Origin: an uncultured Alphaproteobacteria bacterium | Lineage (GTDB): Bacteria; Pseudomonadota; Alphaproteobacteria; Rhizobiales; Xanthobacteraceae | Reading direction: 5' to 3' | DNA length: 64,000 nt | Assembly (NCBI GenBank): GCA_963784325.1 | Contig: CAWARC010000042.1 | Span: 26,841-90,840, forward strand | In this document: piece by piece, positions 46,443 through 52,763 of the stretch | Numbering within the stretch: the first letter of the stretch is position 1 | Layout: each line of letters opens with the position of its first letter | The notes under the pieces: model-generated | Told to the model about the DNA's origin: nothing | What the model saw: only the letters and a program-made list of their open reading frames with translations | The model's database searches: none | Made by a program: the position numbers and the translations under genes

Positions 46443-49400
46443 ATGCAGACCGCTAAAGACGTTGCTGGCCTGGCACCCGCCAACGGTTCCGCCCCTCCGC
46501 CCGTTCCAGCGACCGACCATCACGCCAACGGCGACTCCCAGATTGATGCCGGCGGCCTTACGGAACTCCTTCACGCGCTGCAAACCATGCGGGTCGGCGA
46601 CTTCTCCGTCCGCATGGCCGGCGATCGGGTCGGCATCCTCGGCAAGATCGCCGATACCTTCAATGAGATCGTCGTCACCAACCAGCGCATGGCCAAGCAA
46701 CTGGAACGGGTCGGCCAGGTGGTGGGCCGCGAGGGCCGCACCCGCCAGCGCGTCCGCCTTGGGCTTTCCGACGGGGCCTGGGGCGAGATGGAAGCCAGTG
46801 TCAATTCGCTGATCGACGACCTGTTATGGCCGACCACCGAGGTGACCCGCGCCATCGCCGCGGTGGCACAAGGCGACCTGTTGCAAACCGTGCAGCTCGA
46901 CGTCGACGGCCGGCCGCTGAAAGGCGAGTTCCTGCGCTCCGCCGAGATCGTCAATACGATGATCAAGCAGCTCAACGTGTTCACGTCCGAAGTGACGCGC
47001 GTCGCCCGCGAAGTCGGCACCGAGGGCAAGCTCGGCGGCCAGGCCCAGGTCGGCGGCGTGACCGGCGTGTGGAAGGATCTTACCGAGAGCGTCAACTCGA
47101 TGGCGTCGAATCTCACGGCGCAGGTCCGCAACATTGCCGAGGTGACGATCGCGGTGGCCAACGGCGACTTGTCGAAAAAGATCACGGTCGACGTGCGCGG
47201 CGAAATCCTGCAGCTCAAGGAGGCCATCAATACGATGGTCGATCAGCTGCGCTCGTTCGCCTCGGAAGTCACCCGCGTCGCGCGCGAGGTCGGCACCGAC
47301 GGCAAGCTCGGCGGCCAGGCCATCGTGCCGGGCGTCGCCGGCACCTGGAAGGACTTGACCGACTCGGTGAACGCCATGTGCGGCAACCTCACCGACCAGG
47401 TCCGCAACATCGCCCATGTGACCACCGCCGTGGCGCGCGGCGACTTGTCGCGCAAGATCACGGTCGACGTGCGCGGTGAAATTCTGGAGCTCAAAGACAC
47501 CATCAATACGATGGTGGACCAGCTCAATTCATTCGCCTCGGAAGTCACCCGCGTCGCGCGCGAGGTCGGCACCGAAGGCAAGCTCGGCGGCCAGGCGCAG
47601 GTGCCGGGCGTCGCCGGTACCTGGAAGGATTTGACCGACAGCGTCAATTTCATGGCCGGCAACTTGACCGCGCAGGTCCGCAACATTGCCGACGTGGCGA
47701 CCGCCATCGCCGGCGGCGACTTGTCGAAAAAGATCACAGTCAACGTCTCCGGCGAGATCTTGCAGCTCAAGGAAACCATCAACACGATGGTGGACCAGCT
47801 CAACGCGTTCGCCGGCGAAGTCACCCGCGTCGCCCGTGAGGTCGGCACCGATGGCCGCCTCGGCGGCCAGGCCAACGTGCTCGGCGTCGCCGGCACCTGG
47901 AAGGACTTGACGGACAGCGTGAATTCGATGGCGTCGAACCTCACCGCGCAGGTCCGCAACATCGCCGAAGTGTCGACGGCGATCGCCTCAGGCGACTTGT
48001 CGAAGAAGATCACGGTCGACGTGCGCGGCGAAATTCTCGAGCTGAAAGACACCATCAATACGATGGTCGATCAGCTCAACGCATTTGCCGGAGAAGTGAC
48101 GCGCGTCGCGCGCGAGGTCGGCACCGAAGGCAAGCTCGGCGGTCAGGCGCTGGTGCGCGGCGTGGCCGGCACCTGGAAAGACTTGACCGACTCGGTCAAC
48201 TCGATGGCCTCGAACCTCACCGGCCAGGTGCGTAACATCGCCGAAGTCGCCACCGCCGTCGCGCGCGGCGACTTGAGCCGCAAGATCACCGTCGACGTGC
48301 GCGGCGAAATTCTGGAGCTCAAAGACACCCTCAACACCATGGTGGACCAGCTCAACGCCTTTGCCGCGGAAGTCACCCGCGTCGCGCGCGAGGTGGGCAC
48401 CGAAGGCAAGCTCGGCGGCCAAGCCAACGTGCCCGGTGTCGGCGGCACCTGGAAAGACTTGACCAACTCGGTCAACTCGATGGCCTCGAACCTGACCGGA
48501 CAAGTCCGCAACATCGCCGAAGTGGCAACCGCGATCGCCGGCGGCGACTTGTCACGCAAGATCACCGTCGACGTGCGCGGCGAAATCCTTCAGCTGAAGG
48601 AAACGCTGAACACGATGGTCGACCAGCTCAACCGCTTCGCCGGCGAAGTGACGCGCGTCGCCCGCGAAGTCGGTACCGAAGGCCGCCTCGGCGGCCAGGC
48701 CAACGTCCCGGGTGTCGCCGGCACCTGGAAGGATTTGACCGACAGCGTCAATTCGATGGCCGGCAACCTGACCGCGCAGGTGCGTAACATCGCCGAAGTG
48801 ACCACCGCCGTGGCGCGCGGCGATCTCTCGCGCAAGATCACGGTCGACGTGAAGGGCGAAATCCTCGAGCTGAAAAACACCATCAATACGATGGCCGATC
48901 AGCTCAATGCCTTTGCCTCCGAAGTGACGCGCGTCGCGCGCGAGGTCGGCACCGAAGGCAAACTCGGCGGCCAAGCCCAGGTGCCGGGCGTCGCCGGTAC
49001 CTGGAAGGATTTGACCGACAACGTCAACTTCATGGCGTCGAACCTCACCGCGCAAGTGCGCAACATCGCCGAGGTCGCAACCGCTATCGCCGGCGGCGAC
49101 TTGTCGAAGAAGATTACGGTCGACGTGCGCGGCGAGATGCTGCTGCTGAAAGACACGCTGAACACGATGGTCGAGCAGTTGCGCTCGTTCGCCGCCGAAG
49201 TGACGCGCGTTGCCCGCGAGGTCGGTGCCGACGGCCGGCTCGGCGGTCAGGCCGTGGTGCCGGGCGTCGCCGGCACTTGGAAGGATTTGACCGACAACGT
49301 CAATCTGTTGGCGGCCAACCTTACCACTCAGGTCCGTAACATCGCCGAGGTGACGACCGCGGTTGCGCGCGGCGACTTGAGCCGCAAGATCACGGTCGAC

Positions 49401-52400: not shown

Positions 52401-52763
52401 ACCGTCCTTCTCGTCGACGACGACCCGCGCAACATCTTCGCGCTGTCGAGCGCCCTGGAACGCCGCGGCATGAACGTGTTGACCGCGACGACCGGCGCCG
52501 AAGCGATCCAGATCATCGAGGAAACGCCGGCGCTGGCGATCGTGCTGATGGACATCATGATGCCGGAAATGGACGGCTATCAGACGATCGAGAAGATTCG
52601 TCACAACAAGGACTATCGCCGCCTGCCGATCATCGCTTTGACCGCCAAGGCGATGAAGGGCGACCGCGAGAAATGTCTGCAGGCTGGCGCCTCGGATTAC
52701 CTCGCCAAGCCGGTCAACACCGAACAGCTTTTATCCGCGCTGCGGATGTGGCTGCATCGCTAG
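46443..52763 (+). CDS. Soluble poly-HAMP / GAF hybrid sensor histidine kinase with three C-terminal receiver domains (2106 aa)
   Basis: GGAGAG RBS; no TM segment. About 25 HAMP domains (aa ~40-1195), then GAF (aa ~1200-1365), a coiled coil, HisKA with SHELRTPLN (His1442), HATPase ([11 protein letters not shown]), and REC domains with Asp1768, Asp1890 and Asp2037. Confidence 0.9.
46989..50024 (+). repeat. Eleven in-frame tandem repeats of 276 bp (92 aa = one divergent plus one canonical HAMP)
   Basis: The [10 protein letters not shown]-coding segment recurs at 46989, 47265, 47541, 47817, 48093, 48369, 48645, 48921, 49197, 49473 and 49749, spaced exactly 276 bp. Confidence 0.95.

Follow-up and report, generated by a model that had tools for sequence, protein, structure and literature searches.

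A 25-HAMP hybrid histidine kinase of the AskA/AskB type and its HWE-class partner kinase in a Xanthobacteraceae genome

Poly-HAMP proteins of the kinase type have been defined by Coles et al. (Protein Sci 2026) as arrays of HAMP types C and D that open with a D1 starter and are followed by GAF, DHp and CA domains and at least one receiver (PMC13446029). In Myxococcus xanthus, genetic data have revealed roles of AskA, AskB and AskC in development as well as in the sensing of ambruticin and glycerol, and the poly-HAMP regions of the myxobacterial kinases are extended relative to that of NIK1 (PMC7643160). In fungi, the array of the group III kinases contributes to osmosensing and to the fungicide response, and the bacterial kinase-type and fungal arrays are treated as one family (PMC13446029). 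Arrays of this type are tied in fungi to the action of major agricultural fungicides. Here we describe a poly-HAMP gene located in a stretch of 64,000 nt (hereafter the window) of a Xanthobacteraceae metagenome-assembled genome. The gene, at 46443..52763 on the forward strand, encodes a soluble hybrid histidine kinase of the AskA/AskB type with 2106 amino acids, which is a bacterial counterpart of the fungal group III kinases, and it is followed by the gene of a second kinase, which we call the partner. An initial annotation of the window had stated that no experimentally assigned function was known for the very long soluble arrays. This statement is out of date, since the family was described between 2010 and 2026 and has been studied genetically in Myxococcus and in fungi (PMC7643160, PMC13446029).

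Family membership and domain order

The relationship to AskA was revealed by comparison with crystal structures of its N-terminal fragments, of which 9TRJ covers the first four HAMPs and 9TRK the first six. Residues 19-316 of the poly-HAMP kinase are colinear with both fragments (E = 3.6e-115 for 9TRK and 1.7e-66 for 9TRJ), and the identity to AskA from HAMP1 to HAMP6 is 52%, 48%, 64%, 83%, 86% and 76%. The AskA-like family is marked by a proline and a linker insertion in HAMP3, a tryptophan at the start of helix 2 of the non-canonical HAMPs and glycines at the junctions (PMC13446029). All of these marks were found in the poly-HAMP kinase, through the alignment with 9TRK and in the consensus of its repeat units. 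HAMP3 possesses a proline in helix 1 (WPTTE) and a linker insertion (VDGRPLKGE), which are aligned to QPTTE and VDGRPLRGEFLR in AskA, while the tryptophan of the motif G(T/V)WKDLT is invariant in 11 of the 11 units, as are the glycine columns. In addition, the protein is soluble, its array is N-terminal, a D1 HAMP precedes modules of the C+D2 type, and the GAF, DHp, CA and receiver domains follow in that order. These findings illustrate that the gene product almost certainly belongs to the described AskA-like family of kinase-type poly-HAMP proteins. The kinase is presumably dimeric, and the dimers in 9TRK and 9TRJ suggest that a dimeric four-helix bundle would run along the whole array.

The open reading frame (ORF) begins with an ATG, 5 nt ahead of which lies GGAGAG, and it is intact, with a GC content at third codon positions (GC3) of 0.85. 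The protein starts with a Pro/Ala-rich tail (aa 1-38; 46443..46556, forward strand, as are all features of the gene given below), which is not conserved, being matched in 2 of 13 close orthologs, and is not basic, containing a single basic residue. No sensor domain was found by Pfam ahead of residue 39. The first canonical HAMP, of the D1 type (about aa 39-87; 46557..46703), is the domain that shows 52% identity to AskA HAMP1 in 9TRK, and its Pfam HAMP score is weak (19.3 bits). It is followed by a degenerate first di-HAMP module (aa 88-182; 46704..46988), which consists of a non-canonical HAMP2 and a canonical HAMP3 and in which HAMP_2 is placed at residues 110-156, and then by eleven exact 92-aa di-HAMP units (aa 183-1194; 46989..50024), each with a non-canonical HAMP of 42 aa and a canonical HAMP of 50 aa. 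Behind the array come a GAF domain (aa 1217-1354; 50091..50504; Pfam GAF_2, 3.8e-15), a Q/E-rich coiled-coil linker from GAF to DHp (aa 1361-1430; 50523..50732), a HisKA (DHp) domain with the phospho-acceptor His1442 (aa 1433-1500; 50739..50942) and a HATPase_c catalytic domain (aa 1548-1670; 51084..51452), in which the N box and the G boxes DTGIG and GTGLG are intact. Three receivers matching Pfam Response_reg complete the protein: receiver 1 with Asp1768 (aa 1716-1835; 51588..51947), receiver 2 with Asp1890 (aa 1840-1965; 51960..52337) and receiver 3 with Asp2037 (aa 1983-2106; 52389..52760). The catalytic and receiver residues of the kinase and of all three receivers were intact when checked in the sequence. 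The initial annotation had thus been right about the ORF, its length and the absence of a transmembrane segment (the highest 19-residue Kyte-Doolittle mean is 1.44), as well as about the Pro/Ala-rich start, the series GAF, coiled coil, HisKA, HATPase and three receivers, and the positions of the phosphorylatable histidine and the three aspartates. Two ORFs on the opposite strand inside the gene, at 48552-50876 (774 aa) and 50922-52604 (560 aa), most likely do not represent genes but are shadow ORFs of a coding sequence that is repetitive and GC-rich.

Like AskA (MXAN_0712), AskB (MXAN_6735) and Amb07 of Sorangium cellulosum, the protein is soluble and lacks an N-terminal sensor (PMC7643160, PMC13446029), opens its array with a D1 HAMP that precedes a series of 92-aa modules of a non-canonical and a canonical HAMP, and combines GAF-DHp-CA with several receivers, three in this case, while a 'Rec3' is cited for AskA. 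As in M. xanthus, where askC follows askB, a second receiver-containing kinase is encoded directly downstream. However, the number of HAMPs is 25, compared with 21 in AskA and 31 in AskB, an EcfG-type promoter motif is present upstream, unlike in the case of AskA and AskB, and the host is an alphaproteobacterium without fruiting-body development. The partner also differs from those in the other phyla examined, in that it carries a PAS domain and an HWE/HRxxN core where theirs is HisKA. The wiring to an HWE partner and the EcfG-type promoter are possibly new relative to the described family.

The fungal group III kinases (Nik1, Os-1, TcsC, Bos1) are likewise soluble and bear an N-terminal poly-HAMP array of the alternating type, but they signal via the HOG pathway (PMC13446029), whereas the present kinase comes from a bacterial host and has three receivers and no HPt domain. 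It would work in a manner similar to the fungal kinases and is related to them, a relation that we take from the literature, but it is not a member of that group; no fungal sequence was present among the named cluster-representative matches, which came from Deinococcus, Bacteriovoracaceae and Myxococcales. Chemoreceptor-type arrays, which are built from HAMP types A and B, and Aer2 share with the kinase type the alternation of HAMPs, a continuous four-helix rod and zig-zag packing states (PMC13446029). However, the chemoreceptor-type arrays have a methyl-accepting output and not a kinase, and their HAMP types are of independent origin. No MCP signal domain was found by Pfam in the poly-HAMP kinase, and the NCBIfam Aer2 model reached 280 bits, compared with a cut-off of 1200. 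Aer2 itself contains 5 HAMPs, interrupted by a haem-PAS domain.

Count, age and conservation of the HAMP array

Domain tools do call HAMP in the repeats, a point on which the initial annotation had asked for a check: Pfam identified 11 stretches each for HAMP (1.7e-115) and HAMP_2 (9e-101). Both models are placed on the canonical half of the unit (unit residues 38-88 for HAMP and 25-87 for HAMP_2), and the first helix of the divergent half is covered by no Pfam model, so that Pfam alone does not prove the divergent half to be a HAMP. Its identity as a HAMP is supported by the colinearity with the AskA structures 9TRK and 9TRJ; in the AskA crystals, the divergent halves fold as true four-helix HAMPs (PMC13446029). 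The eleven units contain no insertion or deletion, and Tandem Repeats Finder reported for the gene a period of 276, 9.8 copies, 0% indels and a score of 2875. A hidden Markov model (HMM) made from the 92-aa units also detected a degenerate twelfth module, at aa 88-181. The total is therefore 1 starter plus 12x2, that is, 25 HAMPs. The initial annotation had counted about 25, as three degenerate HAMPs and 11 units, which amounts to the same number, and the divergent and canonical HAMP sequences that it quoted agree with the unit consensus.

Units 1-9 are nearly equivalent, while units 10 and 11 are specialised. Among units 1-9, the identity is about 84% for the protein, about 89% for codon positions 1 and 2 and about 63% for codon position 3. 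Assembly is prone to errors in tandem repeats of 276 nt, and a few related loci carry 2, 6 or 8 units or frameshifts, which might suggest that a recent amplification or an assembly artefact produced the array or that the gene is decaying. However, about 37% of the third codon positions differ among the units, and 62 independent assemblies show the same 11 units in unchanged order, with an intact ORF in the window. The chance that the array arose in this way is negligible, and we regard a recent amplification or an assembly artefact as refuted by the third-position divergence, by the positional orthology described below and by the fixed length in 62 of 66 loci.

Several further Pfam models matched the protein at E values of 1e-5 to 1e-10, including SpoIIID (1.1e-10), HTH_6 (8.8e-8), GatB_Yqey and DUF1759. 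These matches contain no significant stretch and are sums of weak scores from each unit. The SpoIIID and HTH_6 matches are the ones that were read as possible DNA-binding motifs in AskA and AskB, and AskB bound PmrpC DNA in vitro (PMC7643160); the array might accordingly bind DNA through HTH-like segments and the kinase act as a DNA-associated regulator, as proposed for AskB. Besides the lack of any individually significant SpoIIID or HTH_6 stretch, the tail of the protein, with its one basic residue and no conservation, is unlike the positively charged DNA-binding tail of FrzCD (PMC13446029). We consider such a role very improbable, and we rejected the DNA-binding reading of the SpoIIID and HTH_6 matches, which are sums of 11 weak repeats within HAMP helices.

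The N-terminal cap (aa 39-182), used as a query against 1.84 billion cluster representatives, matched 290 representatives at a cut-off of E <= 1e-30 and 1758 at one of E <= 1e-10, with Deinococcus and Bacteriovoracaceae among the named ones. Xanthobacteraceae commonly carry orthologs of about 2100-2120 aa with 93-98% identity, and homologs with 72-74% identity and 13-18 modules are present in Polyangiaceae, other Myxococcales and Verrucomicrobia. Judged from these homologs, the kinase-type poly-HAMP family is widespread. A separate scan of genome contigs for poly-HAMP loci returned almost only alphaproteobacterial loci. In 62 of the 66 alphaproteobacterial loci, Nitrospirillum included, the distance from module 1 to GAF is exactly 11 units. 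The four exceptions are loci with 8, 6 and 2 units (L023, L020 and L036, respectively) and one frameshift; the ORFs of L023 and L020 are intact, and these three loci may either be true length variants or reflect a collapse of the repeats in assembly. A 31-HAMP homolog in an unrelated metagenomic locus (L083, 1-3428) has the genes for trehalose-phosphate synthase, trehalose-phosphatase and trehalase within a few kb, which links it anecdotally to osmoprotection.

The units are orthologous by position. When five Xanthobacteraceae orthologs were compared, every unit had its closest counterpart in the unit that occupies the same position, and in the Nitrospirillum ortholog this holds for 10 of the 12 modules. 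In the comparison with a 14-module Polyangiaceae protein, only the first two and the last two modules keep their positional identity, and the central ones are interchangeable. The ends of the array are thus specialised, and the number of copies in its central block differs from clade to clade. At the level of the unit, about 97% of the consensus positions are frozen, and unit-specific deviations are kept at 66-97%.

Comparison of the regions of the protein revealed that the array is more conserved than the rest. The identity to orthologs is 94-99% in the array, 70-89% in GAF, 81-88% in DHp/CA and 79-93% in the receivers. Within the Bradyrhizobium-level group, it is about 95% for the array and 96% for the Q/E coiled coil, compared with 83% for DHp/CA, 79-81% for the receivers and 74% for GAF; the coiled coil is about 96% identical across Xanthobacteraceae and Nitrospirillum, and GAF is among the least conserved folded domains of the kinase. 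Divergence at fourfold-degenerate sites is about equal in all regions of the gene, so that the conservation of the array reflects purifying selection and not recent transfer. The initial annotation had suggested that the rod could be a mechanical, thermal or crowding sensor or a molecular ruler. The slow evolution, the positional orthology and the fixed length are consistent with an array that is important in its own right and for which length counts as well. That the array evolves more slowly than the catalytic core argues against a mere linker and for the rod as the centre of the protein's function.

The same data bear on whether the array could be a passive rigid spacer or oligomerisation scaffold, a kind of ruler, with a small ligand on GAF as the input. 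GAF sits between the array and the kinase and is labelled sensory in PMC13446029, the protein has no N-terminal sensor, and a fixed number of units would suit a ruler as well. Nevertheless, the array evolves several times more slowly than GAF (about 95% vs about 72-83% identity, with similar synonymous divergence), and a consensus with about 97% of its positions frozen is constrained much more strongly than a spacer of defined length would require. Modelling also suggests that kinase-type arrays are in strained, switchable states (PMC13446029). A purely passive array is an improbable explanation in our view.

The partner kinase and the EcfG-type promoter motif

The partner gene (52774..54675, forward strand) begins 10 nt past the stop codon of the poly-HAMP gene, and no promoter-like or terminator-like site was seen at the junction. 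Its product has 633 aa and is composed of a receiver (REC, 12-124), a coiled coil, PAS_3 (190-279), HWE_HK (298-376), an ATPase domain and a C-terminal REC (about 509-612). The HWE_HK match has an E value of 7.4e-25 in Pfam, and the H-box is of the HRxxN form, with the sequence VDHRARNAL. The best NCBIfam match is to the core of a blue-light LOV histidine kinase (3.2e-61, below the cut-off), and the C-terminal receiver resembles the receiver of the PhyR family. In the general stress response (GSR) of Alphaproteobacteria, PhyR is under the control of kinases of the HWE/HisKA_2 class. The partner shares HWE_HK with an HRxxN H-box with the members of this class that act in the GSR (Pak kinases, LovK, PhyK, LOV-HK). 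Unlike these kinases, it has an N-terminal receiver that is shared with non-HWE partners in other phyla, and its gene is not beside phyR in the window.

The partner gene lies directly downstream in essentially every alphaproteobacterial ortholog locus that extends far enough. In Polyangiaceae, in Verrucomicrobia and in two other metagenomic loci, the next gene encodes a REC-HisKA-HATPase protein with or without a final REC. The N-terminal REC and linker of the partner are 40-47% identical to those of the REC-HisKA kinases of other phyla, while the kinase cores are unrelated. The pair of a poly-HAMP kinase and a receiver-fronted kinase is thus conserved across phyla, as in askB-askC, and in Alphaproteobacteria the core of the partner is of the HWE type. 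Within the Bradyrhizobium-level group, the identity of the partner is 79% in the first receiver, 59% in HWE and 34% in PAS. That the first receiver is the best conserved fits a role as the interface toward the poly-HAMP kinase. In M. xanthus, askB and askC are adjacent, and AskA Rec3 interacts with the AskC receiver in a two-hybrid assay (PMC7643160).

The PAS domain of the partner diverges fast (34-50% identity), as would be expected if it bound lineage-specific ligands. It might then be that the pair senses a chemical in the manner of AskABC, that is, that the partner PAS domain binds a small molecule, such as a natural product or an electrophile like methylglyoxal, or that such a molecule modifies the HAMPs, while the poly-HAMP kinase only relays. 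AskC bound ambruticin in vitro and AskA and AskB did not (PMC7643160), and the modification of HAMP residues has been discussed for the fungal kinases (PMC13446029). However, the affinity of AskC was about 300 uM, compared with an activity in vivo at 4 nM (PMC7643160), the EcfG-type promoter points toward general stress and not toward one compound, and a relay role alone leaves the extreme conservation of the array unexplained. We find chemical sensing of this kind rather unlikely to account for the locus as a whole.

The promoter motif, GGAAC-N16-CGTT, is located at 46247..46271 on the forward strand, and its CGTT ends 172 nt before the ATG of the poly-HAMP gene. The same motif has been reported for EcfG1 of R. 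etli (PMC3892343). The strict form occurs 6 times in the window, compared with 1.04 matches expected, and none of 100 shuffles reached 6. No sigma-70-like promoter was found upstream of the gene. All 15 of the closest orthologous loci have the motif at the corresponding place, with a spacer that has diverged, and 9 more loci also have it; a GGAAC-N16-CATT variant occurs at a similar upstream distance in at least seven other loci. In a reverse-strand control, matches to the motif with one mismatch were only modestly above chance. The stress-sigma promoter proposed in the initial annotation thus holds in so far as the motif is present and kept in all of the closest loci, but neither the strict motif nor a comparable one was found in about half of the more distant orthologs, which suggests that EcfG-type control is lineage-specific.

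Other strict matches lie elsewhere in the window. One, at 56731-56755 (forward strand), is 103 nt upstream of a gene for a Crp/Fnr-family regulator with cNMP_binding and HTH_Crp_2 domains (56858-57601, forward strand). Another, with an N17 spacer, at 60596-60621 (forward strand), is directly upstream of a small ORF (60653-60844, forward strand), which encodes 63 aa from a TTG start with a hydrophobic C-terminus and is a small membrane ORF; in the matching region of a close relative (L002), a CsbD gene and a gene of 54 aa were called. A minus-strand match at 46507-46482 lies inside the poly-HAMP ORF and points from about 400 nt at a 73-aa ORF at 45860-46080; it may be due to chance. One more match, at 3115-3139 (forward strand), falls in a stretch of lower GC content (1-8400; 0.545-0.575 vs about 0.62 elsewhere) that also carries a DDE transposase (958-2304) and a DUF4142 protein (4207-4902). 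This stretch may be an inserted island.

A proposed signalling route and the surrounding genes

Taken together, the explanation that we hold to be on balance probable is that an AskA/AskB-type kinase and a receiver-fronted HWE partner form a two-gene signalling unit, suggestive of a branch of the GSR, whose kinase activity is set in part by the array. Because there is no upstream sensor, the array itself would take part in setting kinase activity. According to the model for AskA, it would be a chain of coupled four-helix bundles in alternating packing states (PMC13446029). A shift in the packing equilibrium would pass through the two specialised last modules to GAF, then along the conserved coiled coil to His1442, and the phosphoryl group would be transferred from His1442 to the receivers of the protein itself. 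From there, the signal could reach the N-terminal receiver of the partner, by phosphotransfer or by a contact between receivers such as that of AskA Rec3 with the AskC receiver, and the HWE core of the partner would signal onward. A two-kinase relay from the poly-HAMP kinase to the partner is, in our judgement, somewhat better than an even proposition. Given the HWE class of the partner and the EcfG-type promoter, the most economical reading is that the pair is induced by stress and serves the GSR as an input or a feedback branch.

Several points weigh against this explanation. No HPt domain was found by Pfam in the poly-HAMP kinase or in the partner, and the route of transfer is hence unclear. 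The only ligand binder reported in M. xanthus is AskC and not the poly-HAMP kinases (PMC7643160), so that the array could be a modulator instead of a sensor. The GAF domain could be the true input. As for the stress response, HWE kinases act outside the GSR too. Since about half of the more distant orthologs lack the strict motif, only some lineages may have the GSR link. Among the window ORFs scanned with Pfam, a set that leaves many ORFs between 8 and 38 kb unscanned and that a short nepR could escape, none is a homologue of PhyR or of an ECF sigma factor. A full-text literature search for EcfG together with 'HAMP domain' returned no paper, and searches on GSR kinases of Bradyrhizobium found none that deals with the poly-HAMP gene; a paper on trehalose and the GSR in B. 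diazoefficiens does not mention kinases (PMC8092242). For the clade of the present gene, we advance a GSR link of the gene pair, suggested by its sequence context, as a tentative proposal with slightly less than even weight.

With regard to the cue, the osmosensing of the fungal group III kinases and the glycerol responses of the M. xanthus Ask mutants suggest, purely by analogy, an osmotic one (PMC13446029, PMC7643160), and on this analogy the cue would most likely be a physico-chemical state of the cytoplasm, for example osmotic stress or low water activity. That such a physical cue is sensed by the array itself appears doubtful. The parts may also be combined into one scheme, in which the 25-HAMP array would be a cooperative sensor of water activity, crowding or temperature, with its set-point given by the exact length and by two specialised modules at each end, and would be wired via the core-swapped HWE partner into PhyR-NepR-EcfG, with positive feedback by EcfG. 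We consider this combination unlikely as a whole; if it were true, a physiological input and a readout would be defined for poly-HAMP arrays where none had been before. The alphaproteobacterial orthologs could in any event ease the testing of poly-HAMP input, given their fixed length and positionally orthologous units. Cultured strains of Bradyrhizobium and Nitrospirillum carry such orthologs, and the strict motif is present at the loci of the cultured carriers Bradyrhizobium liaoningense (L058) and Bradyrhizobium sp. SSBR45G (L074). EcfG-dependent transcription together with the HWE partner kinase offers a plausible quantitative readout in Alphaproteobacteria.

The genes around the pair were also surveyed. 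On the opposite strand, a convergent gene for a hybrid kinase of 626 aa with the Pfam order CHASE3-HisKA-HATPase-REC (54688-56568) ends 12 nt from the stop codon of the partner. It was considered as a part of the module and rejected, because no relatives other than the nearest ones (L003, L004, L005 and L013) have it. No structured RNA of any Rfam family was found anywhere in the window. Upstream of the poly-HAMP gene and divergent from it lies the 73-aa ORF mentioned above (45860-46080, minus strand), which has no Pfam match; a gene of 73 aa was called at the equivalent place in L002. Next to it, a minus-strand gene (44244-45797) encodes a 517-aa fusion of an APH-type phosphotransferase and an AAA_33/zeta-toxin-like P-loop kinase, recognised by Pfam and without an NCBIfam match, and this fusion gene is kept upstream of the poly-HAMP gene in several close relatives. 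Farther away, a hydantoinase/oxoprolinase A and B pair (39090-42943, minus strand) lies beside genes for an NMT1-type solute-binding protein and an ABC transporter, an ordinary metabolic context.

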